Assembly (NCBI RefSeq): GCF_024223415.1
Contig: NZ_CP100500.1
Reading direction: 5' to 3' (one strand)
Length of the DNA stretch: 64,000 bases
DNA from: Escherichia coli
Lineage (GTDB): Bacteria > Pseudomonadota > Gammaproteobacteria > Enterobacterales > Enterobacteriaceae
Under the pieces are notes generated by a model, which was not told where the DNA came from, made no database searches, and saw only the letters and a list, made by a program, of their open reading frames with translations. Numbering within the stretch: position 1 is the first letter of the stretch; each line of letters opens with the position of its first letter. Below are positions 6,816 to 47,881 of the stretch, in pieces. Made by a program: the position numbers and the translations under genes.

Positions 6816-7235
6816 TTAAAGAGATTCGTTCAGCCAGCTATCGAACGGCGCTTTCGGTACTGCGCCATTAAGCATGTCGACAACCTGACCGTTTTTGAAA
6901 ATCATGATCGTCGGTATACTACGAATTCCAAAGCGACTGCTCAATTCACGTTCAGCTTCGGTATTCACTTTCACAAAGCGCACTTTACCGCTACGCTCTT
7001 GCGCGACATCTTCAAAAATTGGTGCGAAATTACGGCAGGGGCCGCACCACGGTGCCCAGAAGTCGATCACCACTGGTAGATCATCTTTCAGCAATTTGTC
7101 GAGCGTTTCACCGGTCGCATTAATCACCTCTCCGTCAAACAAGTCGTGACCGCAGCGTCCGCATTTTGCCGCATCTTCGATCCGATCGTCGGGAATGCGA
7201 TTGATGGCCTGACAATGGGTACAAACGGTATTCAT
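6816..7235 (-). CDS. trxC: thioredoxin 2
   Basis: 139 aa; N-terminal zinc-finger cysteines (CTHC...CGRC) plus WCGPC active site. Confidence 0.95.
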
Positions 7236-7441
7236 AACTAACCTCGGGATGAGTAAGGAGACTTATCGGCAACGACGCCGGTATGTTTCTAATATGTTAC
7301 ATATTATCGGGGACATTGTTCCAGACAACAATCTGTTTTATTCAATAGGTATGATAGTCGCAGGCTTTGGTACGAAATCATGGCGAACCGCGCGGACTTC
7401 GGGTAATCTGCGCGCTTCGCGCAGCGCTGGTGGAGAAAAGC

Positions 7442-8479
7442 ATGAACGATGAAATGAAAGGTAAAAGCGGCAAGGTCAAAGTGATGTATGTCCGCAGTGA
7501 TGATGATTCTGATAAACGTACCCACAACCCGCGTACCGGGAAAGGGGGCGGGCGTCCAGGAAAATCTCGTGCTGACGGTGGCCGTCGCCCCGCCCGCGAT
7601 GACAAACAGAGTCAGCCCCGTGACCGCAAGTGGGAAGAGTCGCCGTGGCGCACGGTTTCCCGCGCGCCGGGTGATGAAACGCCGGAAAAGGCCGATCACG
7701 GTGGCATCAGTGGTAAAAGTTTTATTGATCCAGAAGTTTTGCGTCGTCAGCGTGCGGAAGAAACCCGCGTCTACGGCGAAAATGCATGTCAGGCACTGTT
7801 CCAGAGCCGTCCGGAAGCGATTGTTCGCGCCTGGTTTATCCAGAGCGTAACGCCACGTTTTAAAGAAGCCTTGCGCTGGATGGCGGCAAACCGCAAAGCG
7901 TACCATGTGGTGGATGAAGCGGAATTGACAAAAGCGTCAGGCACGGAACATCACGGTGGCGTTTGCTTCCTGATCAAAAAGCGTAATGGCACAACCGTGC
8001 AGCAGTGGGTAAGCCAGGCAGGTGCGCAGGATTGCGTACTGGCACTGGAAAACGAATCTAACCCGCATAACCTGGGTGGCATGATGCGCAGCTGCGCGCA
8101 CTTCGGCGTGAAAGGCGTTGTGGTGCAGGATGCGGCACTGCTGGAGTCGGGTGCGGCTATCCGTACCGCAGAAGGCGGCGCAGAGCACGTTCAGCCGATT
8201 ACTGGCGACAACATTGTTAACGTGCTGGATGATTTCCGTCAGGCGGGTTACACCGTAGTGACAACTTCCAGCGAGCAGGGGAAACCGCTGTTCAAAACCA
8301 GCCTGCCAGCGAAAATGGTACTGGTGCTGGGTCAGGAATATGAAGGGTTACCGGATGCCGCACGCGATCCGAACGATCTGCGCGTGAAGATTGACGGTAC
8401 GGGCAACGTTGCCGGGCTGAATATCTCTGTCGCAACCGGCGTTTTGCTTGGTGAATGGTGGCGTCAGAATAAAGCCTGA
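7442..8479 (+). CDS. yfiF: SpoU/TrmH-family RNA methyltransferase
   Basis: ORF 7367..8479; start at [14 protein letters not shown]... gives 345 aa as in K-12 YfiF; basic low-complexity N-terminus then SpoU-like core. Confidence 0.88.
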
Positions 8480-25176: not shown

Positions 25177-25202
25177 AAATAATACCGTTCTCTTTAAAAA
25201 GT

Positions 25203-25240
25203 AAAACCCCCGAACTGGTAAGGAACGGGGGTTTTACTTT
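25203..25240. terminator. acpS terminator hairpin (probably also terminates the antisense sRNA OhsC)
   Basis: 10-bp stem aaaacccccg/cgggggtttt with 13-nt loop; T tracts on both strands. Confidence 0.7.
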
Positions 25241-25290
25241 GTAACTTTAATTTAGTGCAGCACGCACCCTCAACAACAGCGATTATGGAT
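25205..25290 (-). ncRNA. ohsC: OhsC-like antitoxin sRNA of the shoB/ohsC type I TA locus (boundaries approximate)
   Basis: A 24-nt segment at 25254..25277 is, on the minus strand, complementary to 25502..25525 in the shoB 5' leader; the two mismatches both become G.U wobble pairs. Placement matches remembered literature that OhsC is divergent from shoB with short complementarity. Ends not determined. Confidence 0.5.
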
Positions 25291-26340: not shown

Positions 26341-27744
26341 TTGAGAATGCCGCGCACTGTAACACATAATCCGGATAGCCCCAATAATGACGATGTTTTA
26401 GCCGCTTCTGAAAAATGGGACGCCTGTAAACCCCCCTATACCAGCGCACACATGAAAATCTGTGTTGCTGCCGCCAAAATCATCCTCGCTGCTTCCGGCG
26501 TGGCTCGCCGTTCCAAATACGAAAAAGAGAACTATCTCCGTATCGATTTCAGCAAAGCCGGTAAGGTTACATTTTACGCCGAGTTTCCAAAAAAGATGGG
26601 CCTCAAAGGTAAAAAGCTCGGCGAGTGGCCGGAGCTCGCTATCCAGCTGGCGCGCGAAAAAGCACTAGGTATGGCTGACGGTGGACTGCGGGCAGAGTCC
26701 GTACATGCAGCGCTGGAAATGTACCGGGATGACCTCAAAGCCAAAGTAGCCCGTCAGAAGCTGAGCCCGGACAGTTTCACAACCTATGGGGTGCGTATCG
26801 ACCGGATTAAATCAACGTTCGGCGAGCGCGAGGTGTTCAGCGACGTAACATACAGTCGGCTGGTGGAAGTGCTGGACGAGTGGATCGCCACTCGCTCGAA
26901 CAATAACGCCCTGGAGTTGTTTGCCGAGCTCCGTCGGTTCTGGAAGTTCTGCGCACCTACTCTTTGCAACGGCCGCAATGTTGCCGCCAGTCTGCCAGAT
27001 GATTATGTTTCCTCCCGCGTACAGAAACCCACCCCCACACGGCTTTTTACCGATATTGAGTCAATCGCCCGGCTCTGGCTCAATGTTGCCGCCTGCACCT
27101 CTGTACACCAGAAGAATGCTGTTCGCTTCATGATCATCACCGGAGTTCGTCCGATTAATGTCCATAACCTGCGCTGGGACTACGTTCACGAGGAGGTTGG
27201 TGAAATTGTTTATCCGGAAGGGGTTATCGGCATGCGAGGGGCTATGAAAACACAAAAGGCTTTCCGCCTGCCGATAACGCCTGAGATCCGGCGGATTATC
27301 GACGAGCAGAAAGCCTGGCGTGATTCAGTTCCTGAGTGCAACAGGGATTATGTATTTTTGCAGCCACGTGATCCAATGCAGCCATTTTCAAAACGATCAC
27401 TGGATAAGCTGGTGAAAACATACAGCCCGGACGGGGCTGTAAAAGGAATAAAACATGATGGGACTGTTAAAGGGAAAGACGGTGCATTTAATACGATGTG
27501 CCGTAAATTCCTTAAGAGCAATGTTATTGCCTTGATGAAGGAAAGAGGCTATTCCCGATCAGACCGAAGGGAAATCAGCCTCCTTTGCCTTCACCACTCC
27601 AGCAAGTCAGATGACCCGATGGCAGAACATTACGACTTTTCTGATGAGATTTTACAGGAAGAGATTGCGTTAAAGCGCGAAGCTTTCGAGGCTCACGAGC
27701 GGAGCATACTTGCGCAGGTGGCATTGCTACGGCGGCGAGGTTAA
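26341..27744 (+). CDS. prophage site-specific recombinase (divergent tyrosine integrase); true start may be internal
   Basis: 467-aa ORF at prophage edge next to an AlpA-like excisionase; C-terminal part shows integrase-like elements (ITGVRP..., ...LHHSSKSDDPMAEHY with candidate catalytic Tyr). Family call by eye only. Confidence 0.6.
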   Translation: MRMPRTVTHNPDSPNNDDVLAASEKWDACKPPYTSAHMKICVAAAKIILAASGVARRSKYEKENYLRIDFSKAGKVTFYAEFPKKMGLKGKKLGEWPELAIQLAREKALGMADGGLRAESVHAALEMYRDDLKAKVARQKLSPDSFTTYGVRIDRIKSTFGEREVFSDVTYSRLVEVLDEWIATRSNNNALELFAELRRFWKFCAPTLCNGRNVAASLPDDYVSSRVQKPTPTRLFTDIESIARLWLNVAACTSVHQKNAVRFMIITGVRPINVHNLRWDYVHEEVGEIVYPEGVIGMRGAMKTQKAFRLPITPEIRRIIDEQKAWRDSVPECNRDYVFLQPRDPMQPFSKRSLDKLVKTYSPDGAVKGIKHDGTVKGKDGAFNTMCRKFLKSNVIALMKERGYSRSDRREISLLCLHHSSKSDDPMAEHYDFSDEILQEEIALKREAFEAHERSILAQVALLRRRG

Positions 27745-31410: not shown

Positions 31411-31898
31411 CCTGTAAAAAGCCCCTGACAGTGCAGGGGCGGGATTGATTTGAATTAACGAGGTAAGGCTGGTGGAATGTATTTGCCGATGCGGTCTTCT
31501 ATCGTTGGCAGAATACACATGCTGTCGTTAAAGCGATCGTGCAGTTTGTAGACCAGTTTCGAATCAGCCATTTCAAGCGCTGGCATTAACTGAGTCTGCC
31601 AGATTTCGTTGATGCGCCGGAAGTTATGACAGATCGCACGAAGATTATTAATGAACATTTCCTTCTCTGCGTCAGTGACTTCTGTTTGTGTTTTCTGAAT
31701 ACGCTTTGTGCTGCCGTTCCGGTAAAAGCGTTCCTGCGCAGCGACAGCCTCATCCACAGTCGGATAACAGCCAACGTATACGTTTTTCTCGCCGTCCCAT
31801 GCATAAGCCCGGTACGGATTGTATTTGCTCCGGTGATGGTAAATCATCTTCGGCAGACATTCCCTGTGCGGCGCCAGTATCGTGGAGGACTGCGGAAC
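31411..31898. repeat. ~490-bp direct repeat, copy A (3' part of BRO-N gene + its terminator)
   Basis: Near-identical to 35504..35990 at DNA and protein level (C-terminal 147 aa plus downstream hairpin gcccctgacagtgcaggggc). Confidence 0.85.
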
Positions 31899-32231
31899 GG
31901 CGGTATCTTTCTCGATAAGGTCAAGCACCCAGCGACGAAATTCTTTGGCTACCGGAGTCGTTGCGAATATTGCTACCAGGTGGGCACCGCGCAGGGAGAA
32001 AACTCGCACATCTTTTTCACGTAAGCTATTGTTTATTCCGTTGAACCTCATTTTGAGGTTGATTGACATACCCGGGGTAAACTCATCTGCGTTGCGGTTG
32101 TATATCTGGGTGATTTTATCGCCGCGCGAATACCCCAGCGCAGTAGCCAGCGTTGCGGCGGTGAACCACTGCCTGCCGTTGTGTTCGGTAGTTTCGAGAA
32201 CGTGAGATTTGAATACGAGTTGGGTACTCAT
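31455..32231 (-). CDS. BRO-N domain antirepressor-like protein with C-terminal AP2-like DNA-binding module
   Basis: ORF 31455..32393; probable start at Met55 (MSTQLVFKSHVLETTEHNGRQWFTAATLATALGY..., BRO-N-like). C-terminal ~147 aa (YRAYAWDGEKNVYVGCYPTVDEAVAAQERF, AP2-like) is nearly identical to the C-terminus of ORF 35547..36311. Confidence 0.65.
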   Translation of the reverse strand: MSTQLVFKSHVLETTEHNGRQWFTAATLATALGYSRGDKITQIYNRNADEFTPGMSINLKMRFNGINNSLREKDVRVFSLRGAHLVAIFATTPVAKEFRRWVLDLIEKDTAVPQSSTILAPHRECLPKMIYHHRSKYNPYRAYAWDGEKNVYVGCYPTVDEAVAAQERFYRNGSTKRIQKTQTEVTDAEKEMFINNLRAICHNFRRINEIWQTQLMPALEMADSKLVYKLHDRFNDSMCILPTIEDRIGKYIPPALPR

Positions 32232-32498
32232 AGTTTTATGTCCTTTGCAATATTTTGAATTCACCCCTTTTGAGAGGGCGGTCAGGCGCTCAAAACCGTG
32301 CAAAGTCGGCGGGCGTATTTCCCTTACGGGTATTGTATTAGCCTCACGCCCGACCATTGAATTCTCAATATCGTGGACATAAAAAATCCGCATGTCTGTC
32401 GGGTGCGGTTTCCGCTTTGCAAGGTGTTTTGAGCACCATGACGCGGAATATAGCCCCGTTAACGCGACATTGTCAAACTGAAGAATTTTACGGATAGC

Positions 32499-32540
32499 AA
32501 AAACCCCCGAACTGGTGAGGAACAGGGGTTTTTACTTTAC
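32499..32540. terminator. hairpin terminator downstream of the TIR-like gene; ~40-nt near-identical copy of the host acpS terminator
   Basis: aaaacccccgaactggtgaggaacaggggtttt versus 25203..25235 aaaacccccgaactggtaaggaacgggggtttt; stem and loop both conserved. Confidence 0.6.
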
Positions 32541-32613
32541 TACTGATTTCGCGGTACGCTGATCTCAAACAGACGAGATTATCACCAGACTTGTAAAGTA
32601 AGCAATGGGCGGA

Positions 32614-33357
32614 TTAAGATGAAGCGTTCGCTATCTGAGCGTCGCTGAATGTGAAACCCGCCTGTTTAAGACGCTGGATTAAGCGGGGTACTGTCTCCCG
32701 AACATGGTCATTAAAGTTGAGATAAAGAATACCGGCGGCATCAGAAGGCTGCTCAAGGTGTTGTTTCTGCAGGATGACCACGTTACTGCGACCGAGTGAA
32801 GATAACAGCATCCCCATTTCTAAAACTACGTTTTGGCGTGCCCTGGGCTGGGCTGCTTCCTGGCCGTCTCTTTTGGCGTATCCCACATCATCGGGAGTGA
32901 GGAGAACAATGCCGAAACGCGTCGCTGTCCGTCCCTGACCAATTTCACGTTCAAGCTCTTCAATTATCGTAAGCCCGGTCCCACCGGTATTCTGCAAAAT
33001 AAAATGGTCAGGTAATCCAAGCTTATGAAGAATAAGTTCAAGCTGCTCTTTTGCTACATGATCGTGACCGTGAACGATGAAAATCTTTTTTGCTGGTTCT
33101 TGCATCATGACTGGAGCGTTACCCAGGTGTTCATTAATAATGGCTTCAACCTCAGGTTTTGCCGCTTGTGAACCCTGAATCAAAATCGTTCCGGTGTGGT
33201 AAAGCGTTATGATGGCACCATTACTTAAACGATAACAATCATGACCGGTTTTGTTTTCTTCTCCGGTAACATCAAATCCGGATTCGACTAAAAATTGACG
33301 AAAAGTATCGACAGCGTATGGGTATTTGAGTGCCATTTCATTGAGTTCCTGCATCAT
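32614..33357 (-). CDS. TIR-like domain protein (resembles the 'predicted nucleotide-binding protein containing TIR-like domain' family) with ~80-aa N-terminal domain of unknown function; candidate defence/abortive-infection effector
   Basis: 247 aa. C-terminal region has KIFIVHGHDH...GIVLLTPDD...QPRARQNVVLEMGMLLSSLGRSNVVIL, which I recognise as the signature of bacterial TIR-like (CAP12/Pycsar-effector-type) domains. From memory, not HMM-verified. Confidence 0.5.
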   Translation of the reverse strand: MMQELNEMALKYPYAVDTFRQFLVESGFDVTGEENKTGHDCYRLSNGAIITLYHTGTILIQGSQAAKPEVEAIINEHLGNAPVMMQEPAKKIFIVHGHDHVAKEQLELILHKLGLPDHFILQNTGGTGLTIIEELEREIGQGRTATRFGIVLLTPDDVGYAKRDGQEAAQPRARQNVVLEMGMLLSSLGRSNVVILQKQHLEQPSDAAGILYLNFNDHVRETVPRLIQRLKQAGFTFSDAQIANASS

Positions 33358-33410
33358 TGTGTTCCTGTAAAGTAAGCAATAGTTAACAAAGTTGCAACGA
33401 CAACGATCAC

Positions 33411-35477
33411 CTAATCTTTTCTGTAACGGTACGCCTCGAATCCTCCGGCGTTTAGTGGAATGCTCGTGGCCCAGTCAGGAACGGTTGCCAGTAACTGGCT
33501 GAGATGTTCTGCTGAGTAATCGGGTGAGTCAGGGGCCTCACTTATAATTTCATCGTGTACCGTCAGCACAATGCTGTAACCGGCATCTTCGATAAGCGGC
33601 ATGTTTCCGGCCAGAACGTCGCGGGCGGCCGCCTGGGTGACGTTCTCCACCAGCTTTCCGCCGTAGGTTTTGAGTCGTTGCCATTTACGCGAATAAGAGT
33701 TAACACCCATATAGGTGATATCCCCTTTTTCGATAACCGGAGACGGGTAGCATACAGCGCGTCCGGATGGTAGCTGTATGCGCAGCCACGCGCCATCGCG
33801 GCGGATTTTAAGATAACCGCAATACAATGTTTTTTGCGGTGTGGCGATTGCAGTGCGGACGGTGCGCTCCAGTTCGTACCAGAAATCGCAGGTCGCCGGG
33901 TGCGCCCTGCGCCACAGGCGCTTGAGCGAGTCACATGCGATGAATACACGCTCGGACAGGCCAAAGGTCGACTTACGTTTAACCGATTCGTCGTACCAGC
34001 TTTTCGCCTCGCGGATAACATCGCGGGGAATGTTTGGCAGTGCGGCGTTCGCCAGCTCGTCGAGATCGAGACCGTAAACCAGAGCAAAAGTGATGAAAGC
34101 CGATACACCACCTCCATAACCCAGACCGAGTTCCATGACTTTACCGATCTGACGCATGTGTTTATCAACATCATCTGGTGCAATATCGAAAGCTTTTGCA
34201 TACGCCAGTTTATATAAGTCCGGACCCGTTCCGGCGTCGTACTCTCTGAATGCATTCAGTTTCCATTCTTCTCCCGCCAGCCATGCCAGCATACGGCCTT
34301 CAATGTTCGACAAGTCACTTACCACCAGTTTTTTGCCTGTTGGCGCGATAATGCAGCCACGTAACGCTGAACTGGTTAGTTCCATGATATTGTCAAACAG
34401 CAGGTCTGCACATCCGGCTTTCAGTGCTTCGATGCCTTCGTCTATTTGTTCCTGTTTTAGTGAAGGGCGGGGAAGGTTCTGGGGCTGGAATAGCCGTCCG
34501 GCCCAACGACCGGTACGTGACGCCCCGCAGAACTGTAGCGTACCGCGTAAGCGCCCGTCGTGGCTTACGCCTTTCATCAGTGCCTTGTATTTACTGGTGC
34601 TGGTAGTACTGGCCTGCAGGCGGATAGCCAGCAGTTCTTTCACGGCAGATGGTAAATTGGGGTCGGCAATACGACGTTCCAGAGTACTGCGTTGCATGTC
34701 TGGTAGCTCCACACCGTAGGATTCAACAATGTGCTTAATCAACGCGTCCCGTTGTGTGGCTGCCTGCACTTCGCCATCAGTCATTTCCTGTGTACGCTTT
34801 GCCAGGCGCTTTTGCTCCTGGTCTACCGCTTCGATCGCAGCGCGCGCGAGTTGAATGTCCATGCAGACGCCCCGGTCGTTGATCTGCTGATCACGATGCC
34901 AGAGTGCCAGTTCTGTCCCCTGATAATTCCACTTCGGCAGACGTTTATAGACTTCGCGCATTGCCTCGATATCCAGTCCGGCGTAAGCAACAAAGCGCCG
35001 CCATTCTTCCGGGTGGGTTTTGCTGGTGGCCCGGCGCAGTTTGCTGTTTTTCGGGCGTGGTTTGCACAGTAGCTGAATTAGTGACTTGCCTTCTTTATCC
35101 TTCGCTTTGTCCTGCGGGACGCCCAGCACTTCGCAAAGAGCGCCCAGCGCCCCCGGAAGACCATGCGCCAGCGCCTGCACCATTGTGTCGCGCCAGCGTT
35201 CAGTAGCTGGTGACATGTCTGGCATACAATGACGAAGTATCGTGCGGTCAAAGTGCGAATTGTGCGCCCAAACCTCCACATCCGGGTTTTTGAGTGCGAG
35301 ACGTAATTCCGGGGGGATTTTTTCGCCTGCGGTCAGGTCCCACACCTGCACGGGATCGTTATTGATGGCCCAGGCAAAAAGCATAATTTCAGCGCCTTCT
35401 GCATATGCGTGGGTACCGTTTTTTATCGGTATTTCAGAGAAGGTTTCAAGATCGAGCCAGAGAATGTTTGCAGGCAA
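33411..35477 (-). CDS. family A DNA polymerase with 3'-5' exonuclease domain (phage-type)
   Basis: 688 aa; Exo I motif (LDLETFS), exo motif YAGLDI, polymerase motif B-like ([16 protein letters not shown]), motif C (TVHDEII). Confidence 0.8.
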
Positions 35478-35503: not shown

Positions 35504-35990
35504 CTACAAAAAGCCCCTGACAGTGCAGGGGCGGGATTGATTTGAATTAACGAGGTAAGGCTGGTGGAATGTATCTGCCGATGCGGTCTTCTATGGTCGG
35601 CAGAATGCACATGCTGTCGCTGAAGCGGTCATGCAACTGGTAAACCAGTTTAGAATCCATTTTTTCGAGAGCAGGCATTAACTGCGCCCGCCAGATTTCG
35701 TTGATGCGCCGGAAGTTATGACAGACGGCGCGGAGATTGTTGATGAACATTTCCTTCTCTGCGTCAGTGACTTCTGTCTGTGTTTTCTGAATACGCTTTG
35801 TGCTGCCATTCCGATAGAAGCGTTCCTGAGCAGCAACAGCCTCATCCACGGTTGGATAGCACCCTACGTAAACGCTCTTCTCTCCGTTCCATGCGTAGGC
35901 TCTGTACGGGTTGTATTTGCTCCGGTGATGGTAAACCATCTTCGGCAGACACTCCCTGTGTGGCGCCAGTATCGTGGAGGATTGCTGGTG
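35504..35990. repeat. ~490-bp direct repeat, copy B (3' part of AntA-type gene + its terminator)
   Basis: See copy A. Confidence 0.85.
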
Positions 35991-36311: not shown

Positions 36312-36691
36312 AGTTACCTCTAACGGTGAAATTCACCGCCACCACTGAGTTGCAAATCTCATATGGGTGGCGAACTGACGAGGTTTGCAATACCGGCGTT
36401 AGAGGAAACCGGCGCGCCGAAGCGCCCCCGCCAGCCCGCCATAATGCGAACGTGGCAAAGCTTGCGACAATAAAAAAGACGCTGGCGCGTCTGGTGTCGC
36501 CCCTAACAATTCCGGGTTGCAAATCCCGATCTCCATTTGGGAGATTCGGTGAGCATAAACCGGAAGGGGGCGATGAGTCAATATCGGGGTAGCAGGGCGA
36601 CTGGGTGCTAACCAGAACAATACAGGTAGCTCCGGGCATATTCCCCTTTGCAAAAACACCCGGCGTTTAACCGGGCGTCTGTGAAGCAGGA

Positions 36692-40266: not shown

Positions 40267-40890
40267 TTATCTTTTGCGGCGGTAAATACGATGTTCAATC
40301 ATGACCCCTACGATCTGTAAGGGGACATCTGCACTTCGTAGCACGGGATAGTCGGGATTCAGGGGGACCAGTTCAAAATCATCAACGCCGATACCCAACG
40401 GGCGGTATTTTTTGAAAGTGGCCTCATACCCGTTGTTCTTTGCAACGACGAATTCGCCAGGCATGGGGCATAAATCCGGGTCAATTATTACAATATCGCC
40501 TTCCTTAAACTCCGGTTGCATACTGTCACCATCTATCCGCAGGGCGAAGCAGGACTCAGGTACGTCGGAATCCGCGAGAACGTATTCCATATTTCCATCC
40601 ATGTCCGTAGCGTCTTTTGCTTCCGTTAGCGCACCGGCCTGTACGTAACTGAGGATCGGGATGCGGCGGGTACTTATTTCCGCCAGGGGCATTATATTCC
40701 TGCCATTTAAAAGCCAGTCGGGACTGCATTTCAGTGCCTTTGAAAGCTCTATGATGTTGCGGGGCTTCCGGGTCTTTCCGCTTTCAATAGTCTCAATGGA
40801 TTGCTGGCTGACCCCCGCGATTGCTGCAACTTCTGTTTGTGTCATCCCGAGTTCTGTACGGCGTGCTTTAAAGCGTTCTGCAAGTGACAT
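40267..40890 (-). CDS. CI-like prophage repressor (XRE HTH + S24 LexA-like peptidase domain)
   Basis: ORF 40267..40956; start at Met23 (MSLAERFKARRTELGMTQTEVAAIAGVSQQSI...) preceded by AGGGGG RBS; S24 motifs (GDSM...) in C-terminal half; divergent from cro. Confidence 0.85.
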   Translation of the reverse strand: MSLAERFKARRTELGMTQTEVAAIAGVSQQSIETIESGKTRKPRNIIELSKALKCSPDWLLNGRNIMPLAEISTRRIPILSYVQAGALTEAKDATDMDGNMEYVLADSDVPESCFALRIDGDSMQPEFKEGDIVIIDPDLCPMPGEFVVAKNNGYEATFKKYRPLGIGVDDFELVPLNPDYPVLRSADVPLQIVGVMIEHRIYRRKR

Positions 40891-40949
40891 GGTGTACCCC
40901 CTGATTCCTGATTTTTTGCTCTCCCTTATTAATACAATTTTTGTTGTAG

Positions 40950-40978
40950 TTGACAAACATCATTTATTGTCGCTAAAT
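40950..40978 (+). promoter_or_regulatory. PR-like promoter for cro (TTGACA-17 bp-CTAAAT) within the cI/cro operator region
   Basis: Consensus -35 TTGACA with 17-bp spacer and a -10-like hexamer ~30 bp upstream of the cro ATG; flanking short inverted repeats (tacaattt / aaattgta) may be operators. Confidence 0.5.
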
Positions 40979-46795: not shown

Positions 46796-47329
46796 ATGAA
46801 CACCAAAATCAAATATGGCCTGTCGGCTGCCGTTCTGGCACTGATTGCCGTCGGTGCGCCTGCGCCTGATATTCTCGACCAGTTTCTGGATGAAAAAGAA
46901 GGTAACCACACAACGGCATACCGCGATGGTTCCGGTATATGGACCATCTGTCGTGGTGCCACAATGGTGGATGGTAAGCCCGTCATACCGGGAATGAAGC
47001 TGTCGAAGGAAAAATGCGTTCAGGTTAATGCCATTGAGCGTGATAGGGCGCTGGCATGGGTGGAGCGCAATATTAAAGTACCTCTGACCGAAGCACAGAA
47101 AGCGGGTATTGCGTCATTCTGTCCCTATAACATTGGCCCCGGTAAGTGTTTCCCGTCGACGTTTTATAAGCGGCTTAATGCCGGTGATCGTAAAGGTGCC
47201 TGTGAGTCGATTCGCTGGTGGATTAAGGACGGTGGGCGTGATTGCCGCACACGTTCAAATAACTGCTACGGACAGGTTATTCGTCGTGACCAGGAAGCAG
47301 CACTTGTGTGCTGGGATATCGACAGATGA
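46796..47329 (+). CDS. SAR endolysin (phage 21 R-type lysozyme)
   Basis: 177 aa; N-terminal signal-anchor-release helix (GLSAAVLALIAVGAPA); lysozyme core (TICRGAT...). Confidence 0.85.
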   Translation: MNTKIKYGLSAAVLALIAVGAPAPDILDQFLDEKEGNHTTAYRDGSGIWTICRGATMVDGKPVIPGMKLSKEKCVQVNAIERDRALAWVERNIKVPLTEAQKAGIASFCPYNIGPGKCFPSTFYKRLNAGDRKGACESIRWWIKDGGRDCRTRSNNCYGQVIRRDQEAALVCWDIDR

Positions 47330-47818: not shown

Positions 47819-47881
47819 CTGTTACGGCCAGGTTATTCGTCGTGACCAGGAAAGTGCATTAGCCTGTTGGGGGATAGATCA

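Follow-up and report, generated by a model that had tools for sequence, protein, structure and literature searches.

In the bacterial systems where they have been characterised, Cap12 and PycTIR, TIR domains of the PF10137 type are NAD+-depleting effectors. In Bacillus subtilis the element ICEBs1 encodes SpbK, in which an N-terminal sensor is joined to a C-terminal TIR NADase and which acts by abortive infection once activated by binding of a phage portal protein (PMC11984713). The family PDC-S35 comes from a list of 145 phage-defence candidates, which was drawn up from genes that lie within BREX, DISARM and type I restriction-modification (RM) loci (Payne et al., 10.1101/2024.01.29.577857). 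As for TBP-like domains, the N-domain of RNase H3 binds RNA/DNA hybrids (PMC3710099), RnlA needs its first TBP-like domain to bind its substrate (PMC8266594) and prokaryotic Schlafen defence nucleases carry TBP-like domains among their fused domains (PMC13056530). Here we analysed a stretch of 64,000 nucleotides of Escherichia coli DNA (contig NZ_CP100500.1; the whole stretch is called the window below) and in it a prophage gene for a 247-amino-acid (aa) protein in which a small N-terminal domain precedes a TIR domain. We consider it reasonably probable that this protein is a standalone, single-polypeptide abortive-infection (or superinfection-exclusion) NADase, the gene of which a temperate E. 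coli phage carries as an accessory moron. We lean this way because of the homology to Cap12 and PycTIR, the precedent of SpbK and the evolutionary signatures of the gene.

The C-terminal region was recognised by three methods. The Pfam hidden Markov model (HMM) of PF10137, the CAP12/Pycsar effector TIR domain of the STIR clan, matches with E=1e-30 over model positions 1-118 of 119. A search of all sequences in the Protein Data Bank (PDB) with a profile of 87 homologues found only TIR-STING/Cap12 (9lmq, 7un8) and PycTIR (8jsj), with the motif NVVLEMG aligned opposite NVVFEFG of the TIR-STING/Cap12 structures. Foldseek with the AlphaFold2 (AF2) model returned TIR-STING, the SPARTA TIR, SARM1, SpbK and MAL filaments. 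The region has the flavodoxin-like TIR fold as well as the conserved glutamate, and the 51 positions that are invariant in the alignment of the 87 homologues include Glu180. The glutamate in this motif is catalytic in TIR NADases, and by analogy Glu180 is the predicted catalytic residue of the window protein. A first-pass annotation made from the DNA letters had proposed a TIR-like C-terminal region in this open reading frame (ORF) and quoted several of its motifs; the ORF is present where it was placed, its translation contains KIFIVHGHDH, LLTPDD and PRARQNVVLEMG, and the TIR assignment is confirmed as that of the Cap12/Pycsar type. An alternative ATG 3 bases further in gives a 246-aa form, which NCBI lists too.

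Over its full length the protein belongs to a family that has already been catalogued. The PDC-S35 HMM of PADLOC (PDLC05003) matches residues 11-247 on profile positions 3-245 of 245 with E=8.9e-107, in agreement with a single-gene system whose neighbours are not conserved, and phrog_16442 matches with E=1.9e-77. RefSeq labels the family 'TIR domain-containing protein', so that the gene is not undescribed, contrary to what the first-pass annotation had suspected. The locus clearly belongs to a candidate family that is catalogued but experimentally uncharacterised, and to a kind that was already established, the sensor-fused TIR effector on a mobile element. Membership itself gives no mechanism because the family is a computational candidate only; at the level of sequence, a full-length match to a family nominated from BREX, DISARM and RM loci supports an association with defence. 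The identical protein (P0121) is found on 116 E. coli contigs. Against the 253-aa allele of E. coli ECONIH2 (NZ_CP014667.1; locus L001) the ratio of nonsynonymous (dN) to synonymous (dS) divergence is 0.074 for the whole gene, 0.034 for the TIR part and 0.21 for the N-domain. The gene is under strong purifying selection and hence functional.

The N-terminal domain of about 80 residues, which the first-pass annotation had left as unrecognised, can be placed by its predicted fold together with weak but consistent sequence signals. Modelled alone it reached a mean predicted local distance difference test (pLDDT) of 84 and showed the order helix, four strands, helix; the strands form an antiparallel sheet and the model superposes on solved members of the TBP-like fold. 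In Foldseek searches with this model RnlA and LsoA rank next after the two top matches. The HMM signals are TIGR00716 rnhC, DUF3378 and, in one member, RnlA_toxin at 1.5e-4, which is also precomputed on P0031. The best two PDB sequence matches are 3vn5 and LsoA, which have the motif G(T/S)xxxQG in common with the domain. Judged from the model, these 70-80 residues form a recognisable TBP-like fold, common to the RNase H3 N-domain and RnlA.

Rates of evolution differ strongly between the two parts of the protein. Mean pairwise identity is 35% for the N-domain and 73% for the TIR domain, median identity to the query 25% and 70%, and dN against the allele of locus L004 is 0.54 and 0.10, respectively: the N-domain evolves far faster than the TIR domain. 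Against the ECONIH2 allele dS is 0.115 in the N-domain part and 0.49 in the TIR part, and this four-fold difference together with a 6-aa indel in the linker points to recombination with a breakpoint within the gene. In E. coli prophages the N-domain is in circulation as three alleles, those of the window protein, WP_021563492.1 and WP_001157068.1, whose TIR domains are nearly identical. The domain is also found apart from TIR: a profile search with the N-domain only returned 1019 representative proteins, among them P0218 (617 aa) and P0284 (607 aa), where it stands ahead of a body that matches PADLOC dCTPase (E ~1e-170) and has a Pfam deaminase domain, and P0210 (428 aa), where it stands ahead of a hydrophobic region that resembles multiple transmembrane (TM) segments. 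When a small variable domain is joined to several toxic effectors that are unrelated to each other, this usually marks it as a defence sensor. Fast evolution, purifying selection on the gene and reuse on unrelated effectors are the grounds on which we read the N-domain as the sensor.

How such a protein would work can be sketched from its relatives. Before infection the TIR domain would be inactive as a monomer or small oligomer, as in Cap12 TIR-STING/TIR-SAVED, PycTIR and SpbK. The TBP-like N-domain, acting as a built-in sensor, would bind a phage protein or a nucleic-acid structure as the cue of infection, and cue binding would drive assembly of the protein through its TIR domain. The higher-order oligomer would form composite active sites around Glu180 and hydrolyse NAD+, and the loss of NAD+ would arrest or kill the cell and so block other phages. 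We infer the NADase activity, the oligomerisation, the trigger, the defence phenotype and the expression in the lysogen.

Several points weigh against this proposal. The main weakness concerns lysogen expression, which a prophage defence gene needs and which we can only infer, since the gene lacks a detectable promoter of its own behind polA in a leftward replication operon. The net charge of the N-domain, an indirect proxy for nucleic-acid binding, is -4 (family median -1, range -6 to +4). Such an acidic domain fits RNA/DNA-hybrid binding of the RNase H3 type poorly and a protein ligand better than a nucleic acid. The AF2 full-length model is only moderate (pLDDT 79; predicted template modelling score, pTM, 0.57). 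Some PF10137-related or TIR-like enzymes act in non-immune nucleotide processing. The PDC candidates were termed untested by their own authors (10.1101/2024.01.29.577857), a later preprint leaves PDC systems out as unvalidated, and the name 'PDC-S35' was found in no paper of the literature searched. No experimental work on this architecture was found in the literature on PF10137/TIR defence, TBP-like anti-phage domains and integron TIRs; the DefensePredictor and language-model preprints do not cover the architecture either.

The reuse of the N-domain leads us to a wider speculation, offered tentatively and with more doubt than belief: this TBP-like domain of about 75 residues could be a widely shared, previously unrecognised infection-sensing module on unrelated suicide or depletion effectors, namely TIR NADase, dCTP deaminase and membrane protein and, more distantly, the RnlA/LsoA HEPN RNases and Schlafen nucleases. 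It would sense a common hallmark of phage replication, be it a conserved phage protein or an intermediate of replication or transcription, for example an RNA:DNA hybrid. If this were true, the prophage copy, right behind a polymerase gene, must be blind to its own carrier.

The gene is an accessory of its prophage. Among 5426 complete E. coli genomes a TIR homologue turns up in 46 and the neighbouring polymerase in 158, which makes the TIR gene accessory; comparison with related prophages finds it variably present and not a conserved core component of the replication module. The same slot in TIR-less relatives holds nothing, a small ORF or a Bro-N gene. In the induced E. coli phages vB_EcoM-689R2, -611R5 and -606R2 the layout is the same, and a TIR gene of 71% identity occupies this slot. 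G+C content is 46% for the TIR gene and 54% for polA, and a terminator follows every TIR allele examined. Status as an accessory moron is supported by the difference between 46 and 158 genomes, the lower G+C, the terminator after each allele and the presence of a SIR2 candidate across polA in ECONIH2. Coordinates of the gene and its surroundings are collected in Table 1.

Table 1. Features of the TIR locus and its prophage (window coordinates; +/- strand, '.' for unstranded).
Feature	Position	Strand	Remarks
247-aa two-domain TIR protein gene	32614..33357	-	ORF; PADLOC PDC-S35 family, PHROG 16442
TIR domain codons	32710..33087	-	PF10137 match, residues 91-216; domain runs on to C-terminus
Glu180 codon, in NVVLEMG	32818..32820	-	invariant in 87 homologues; aligned with Cap12 Glu
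Upstream 15-mer copy	33366..33380	.	in polA-TIR leader, directly 5' of ribosome-binding site
Downstream 15-mer copy	32592..32606	.	7 nt past stop; overlaps -35-like TTGCTT (32600-32605)
Family A DNA polymerase gene (polA)	33411..35477	-	directly upstream of TIR; 'DNA polymerase'/PF00476 in relatives
ohsC-like small RNA (sRNA)/terminator element	32494..32569	-	Rfam RF02495 ohsC_RNA; ends polA-TIR transcription unit
Strong promoter-like site of next unit, TTGACA-18-TATATT	32447..32476	-	11/12 consensus matches
Neighbouring unit: C4-like leader RNA, then Bro-N antirepressor-type gene	31455..32355	-	sRNA-Xcc1 match 32272-32355 (Rfam 79.8 bits); gene 31455-32231, 258 aa
Prophage integrase	26341-27744
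CI/LexA-like repressor	40267-40956

From the integrase onwards the prophage encodes an SNF2 helicase, Arc-type regulators, a VRR-NUC nuclease, an ANR regulator, a Bro-N antirepressor-type protein and the TIR protein, followed by the family A polymerase, a second Bro-N/Ant protein, DUF2815 (resembling single-stranded DNA-binding protein), a DUF2800 nuclease, the CI/LexA-like repressor and a divergent primase-helicase. The first-pass annotation was right to place the TIR gene in a replication module, but the lambdoid label was rejected for this module: it is of the DUF2800/DUF2815/PolA/VRR-NUC/SNF2 kind and not lambda-like, the CI/LexA-like repressor notwithstanding. Flanking E. coli chromosome is also in the window, as identified by Rfam matches to rseC antisense, rncO and ohsC and, by comparison, by pdxJ-acpS-shoB-yfhL. 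The gap between polA and the TIR gene is a 53-nt leader with the ribosome-binding site AGGAA at 33362-33366, and the TIR gene is probably transcribed from the polA transcript. No sigma-70-like promoter was found at scanner threshold in this gap or just upstream within polA. A TTGCAA-17-TACTTT arrangement seen by eye in the leader was discarded as a TIR promoter, being weak (7/12) and with a start that would fall inside the ribosome-binding site.

The slot on the other side of polA, between DUF2815 and polA, is even more variable. Among prophages that are otherwise near-identical (L007-L014, L024-L033) it holds Band_7 with a NUMOD4-HNH endonuclease, Nmad5 with UCP028583, AntA, IS605 OrfB/TnpB or unassigned proteins of 199-229 aa; those of these slot proteins that were tested gave no PADLOC match. 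In ECONIH2 a 500-aa SIR2 protein (6970-8472 of that locus) that matches PADLOC PDC-S25 with E=4e-158 lies there, and by these sequence assignments two NAD-related defence candidates flank the polymerase gene in that strain. The polymerase gene of E. coli VL7S7 (L003; 4293-7127) measures 2835 bp where that of the window has 2067 bp, and it aligns in two pieces, which suggests an inserted element, e.g. an intein or a homing-endonuclease domain.

Outside E. coli prophages the surroundings change completely. A 53%-identical homologue of Vibrio parahaemolyticus (L015-L017, 7001-7762) sits in an array of small same-strand genes (LysE, acetyltransferases, DinB, tiny ORFs) that, by its gene content, looks like a chromosomal integron; other distant homologues lie in an island with an integrase, Mrr and PemK and in a Ralstonia island with a serine recombinase. 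Across the E. coli prophages, the Vibrio array and these two islands no shared partner gene was found, and since no neighbour is common to these contexts a standalone system is supported. This agrees with the earlier remark that no partner gene is adjacent; a cyclase was likewise seen in no context examined.

Downstream, the gene is followed by a terminator within an element that resembles the sRNA ohsC. The Rfam ohsC_RNA match covers model positions 1-77 of 77 (E=2.5e-5) but scores 44.5 bits, below the gathering score of 50. The terminator hairpin lies at about 32500-32535 (fold z=-3.3). The element is homologous to the chromosomal ohsC/acpS terminator (25198-25274, minus strand), about 7 kb away beside the prophage insertion site. 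In L004 the same element stands upstream of an AntA gene in another slot, with TIR not nearby, and the GATAAT -10 is conserved in L004 and in chromosomal ohsC. The TIR gene was earlier credited with a terminator of its own: a terminator does follow it, but it is that of the ohsC-like element of the antirepressor module, which is also found without TIR. Predicted pairing of the ohsC-like RNA with the TIR leader or mRNA, or with shoB, was no better than with shuffles, in an assay where the chromosomal ohsC-shoB control was strongly positive. Given the sub-threshold score and a shoB pairing no better than random we call the element 'ohsC-like' and not ohsC. Possible origins are the capture of a terminator or an sRNA that acts on a different target.

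The unit beyond this element begins with a C4-like leader RNA and encodes a Bro-N antirepressor-type protein. Rfam matches to sRNA-Xcc1, C4 antisense RNA and isrK were obtained in the leaders of both Bro-N/Ant genes (32272-32355, 36363-36446 and 36472-36545, all on the minus strand), which by sequence are P1 immI-like antirepressor control regions. It follows from these leader matches that the 312-aa ORF at 31455..32393 probably starts at 32231 (258 aa), as called in relatives. The contigs returned by a look-up of the exact Bro-N allele of the window all carry the 247-aa TIR allele as well. Both antirepressor-type genes have their 3' halves and terminators in common as a direct repeat (31416-31715 and 35508-35807; at least 300 nt, 90%) with a spacing of 4092 bp, and the similarity reaches further into the two genes than these coordinates. 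This repeat brackets TIR and polA, and homologous recombination there would delete both.

A much shorter repeat surrounds the TIR gene itself. In the 64-kb window there are exactly two copies of the 15-mer TGTAAAGTAAGCAAT, one on either side of the gene, and two or more copies were obtained in 0 of 100 shuffles. A Markov-1 simulation gave an expectation of 0.06 exact direct repeats of at least 15 nt within 1 kb per window, and two were observed including this one; the only other, of 24 nt (47273-47296 and 47829-47852, 556 bp apart), is found in the rightward part of the prophage. The flanking sequences of the two 15-mers differ from the first base onwards on both sides, so that this repeat is exactly 15 bp. 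The first-pass annotation had given both copies correctly and had put them 8 bp outside the start and the stop, which holds for the start codon (8 nt) but not for the stop codon (7 nt). The downstream copy overlaps what by inspection is a promoter-like site ahead of the ohsC-like element: TTGCTT, a 16-nt spacer and GATAAT (32578-32583), the latter 7-8 nt ahead of the first base of the Rfam ohsC match. As a target of the C4-like antisense RNAs the 15-mer was dismissed, the duplex energies being no better than those of shuffles.

Comparison with relatives suggests to which sequences the two copies belong. Both are kept in 8 of 8 contigs checked with the identical 247-aa allele, and alleles of 92% (L001) and 70% (L004, L006) identity have no bracket. 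The downstream copy is absent from all three of these loci; L001 has a 13/15 version of the upstream copy at the same place, and L004 and L006 have a different leader without the 15-mer and a small terminator of their own directly before the ANR gene. Against the TIR-less L002 and L003 the indel extends between the polA stop (~33413) and the -35 that belongs to the next promoter (~32477); in those two loci this -35 abuts or overlaps the polA stop codon. Against L001 homology spans polA, the leader, the upstream 15-mer and the gene and ends about 5 nt past the stop (~32609), before the downstream copy. We read the upstream copy as part of the polA-TIR leader and the downstream copy as part of the ohsC-like/antirepressor-promoter module. 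Most likely the repeat is an allele-specific recombination scar, in which sequence after polA was duplicated as TIR was spliced before the ohsC-like/antirepressor module, and not a target duplication of the transposon type. If the repeat is such a scar, there should be a TIR-less relative in which polA, leader, one 15-mer and the ohsC-like element follow each other in this order. This empty site was not found in the 5426 E. coli genomes, where the downstream segment had no matches besides the chromosomal ohsC terminator and one further phage slot. The hypothetical empty junction also had 0 matches in JGI metagenomes, a result that is uninformative as the occupied form too gave 0 in IMG/VR and metagenomes.

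The first-pass annotation had instead taken the repeat as the precise boundary of a mobile single-gene cassette, that is, as a target-site duplication or att-like core. An exact repeat far from chance, within 7-8 nt of the ORF at both ends and kept in all checked contigs of the allele, is what such a cassette would leave, and the Vibrio family member looks like an integron-type cassette. Yet a target-site duplication would place repeats at the presence/absence breakpoints and around other copies of the gene, and neither is the case: the breakpoints at ~32477, ~33413 and ~32609 miss the repeats, the 92% allele has the upstream copy only (13/15) and the 70% alleles have neither. Further, the downstream copy lies inside the promoter-like region of a module that also occurs without TIR, no recombinase or transposase is linked, and the empty site was missing from the E. 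coli genomes searched. We consider the cassette quite improbable and retain the recombination scar. Another reading of the same surroundings, in which TIR and the ohsC-like sRNA form a toxin-antitoxin (addiction) pair, would account for an ohsC-like element, full-length and with its -10 conserved, directly downstream and for a 15-mer common to the TIR leader and the sRNA promoter region. It is hardly credible, as pairing with the TIR leader and mRNA stays at shuffle level where the ohsC-shoB control is positive, other TIR alleles lack the element and L004 has the element without TIR; the ohsC-like RNA was rejected as an antitoxin to the TIR mRNA on the pairing result.

With respect to function, the absence of a detectable promoter and the place in the replication operon, 53 nt behind polA, leave room for a role in the lytic cycle of the phage itself. 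The protein would then be produced along with the replication proteins and serve host take-over, counter-defence or nucleotide metabolism by acting on NAD+, nucleotides or host immune signals, with the TBP-like domain as a tether to replication intermediates. Nucleotide-related genes (Nmad5, DUF4406, cytosine methyltransferase) do occupy the same slots in relatives, and RNase H3 uses the fold closest to that of the N-domain for the binding of RNA/DNA hybrids (PMC3710099). Against this stand the acidic N-domain, its presence on dCTP-deaminase defence proteins, the nomination of the family from BREX/DISARM/RM-embedded genes and the close family members outside phages, in integron-like arrays and in islands beside Mrr and PemK. 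Moreover, about 70% of related prophages lack the gene, which is hence not needed for replication; taken together we regard a lytic role as unlikely. Alternatively the TIR domain could make a signalling nucleotide, in the manner of Thoeris ThsB, for an effector encoded elsewhere, without depleting NAD+ itself. TIR domains of this PF10137 type are the NAD+-depleting effectors of Cap12 and PycTIR, no SIR2, SLOG or Macro neighbour is in the window and no partner is conserved across contexts. In favour of signalling, the SIR2 protein across polA in one relative, ECONIH2, has weak ThsA-like matches. Bacterial TIR domains can produce signals (10.64898/2025.12.03.692087), but the same study discarded standalone TIRs as likely effectors, and we give signalling very little credence. 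An NAD+-depleting standalone effector is still the reading we prefer.

If this is right, the locus represents a compact one-gene immune system of 0.75 kb, in which a conserved NAD+-destroying TIR domain is steered by a small, fast-diversifying sensor. As there are three N-domain alleles, and the same domain stands on dCTP-deaminase proteins, domain swaps or escape mutants could identify the target of the sensor, which would also illuminate the N-terminal domains of RnlA and LsoA. The two slots that flank polA gather accessory genes (TIR/PDC-S35, SIR2/PDC-S25, antirepressors, homing endonucleases, IS605 TnpB) and should be useful for mining further defence genes. No concept is changed by our work, because single-protein TIR defences on mobile elements are already established; what it adds is that the fold of the N-domain has been identified, that this domain is seen to be reused on dCTP-deaminase and membrane effectors, and that the cassette-boundary idea has been corrected.

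How then does the window protein relate to the known systems? It was not assigned to CBASS or Pycsar, as its neighbours are polA and Bro-N and neither a CD-NTase nor a pyrimidine cyclase occurs in any context examined. Membership in Cap12 proper was excluded, as the NCBIfam scores are 33.4 and 31.9 bits where the cut-off is 450, with alignment limited to the TIR core; membership in PycTIR was rejected as well. Thoeris ThsB was also set aside: there is no PADLOC ThsB match, and a ThsA-type neighbour (SIR2/SLOG, Macro/TM) is not in the window, the SIR2 gene across polA being found in one relative only. With Cap12 (TIR-STING/TIR-SAVED of CBASS) and PycTIR (Pycsar) the protein nevertheless shares the TIR subfamily, by Pfam, PDB profile and fold, and the same chemistry, NAD+ hydrolysis after ligand-driven oligomerisation, would be expected of it by analogy. 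Unlike Cap12 it has no STING, SAVED or cyclic-nucleotide-binding domain and carries the TBP-like N-domain as its putative sensor instead. The TBP-like domains of RNase H3, RnlA and LsoA are only marginally similar in sequence to this N-domain (E 0.006-0.2). Those of RNase H3 and RnlA bind a nucleic-acid substrate (PMC3710099, PMC8266594), whereas the domain of the window protein is acidic and the enzyme attached to it is not a nuclease. Among PADLOC dCTPase proteins, P0218 and P0284 have the same N-domain (PDC-S35 N-terminal match E=1e-12 and 3e-10) before a kinase-like and deaminase body, which at the sequence level points to a sensor shared with the TIR protein; the effector differs entirely, depleting nucleotides by deamination, and dCTPase profile positions 1-141 are unmatched, so that the two represent a variant architecture. 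The closest working precedent is SpbK, likewise a single protein encoded by a mobile element, in which a sensing region at the N-terminus precedes the TIR domain, but the likeness exists at the level of the fold only (filament 9phb, 16% identity, E=8e-3) and the N-terminal regions are unrelated. With PDC-S35, finally, the protein shares the same two-domain single-gene architecture, without any structural difference.

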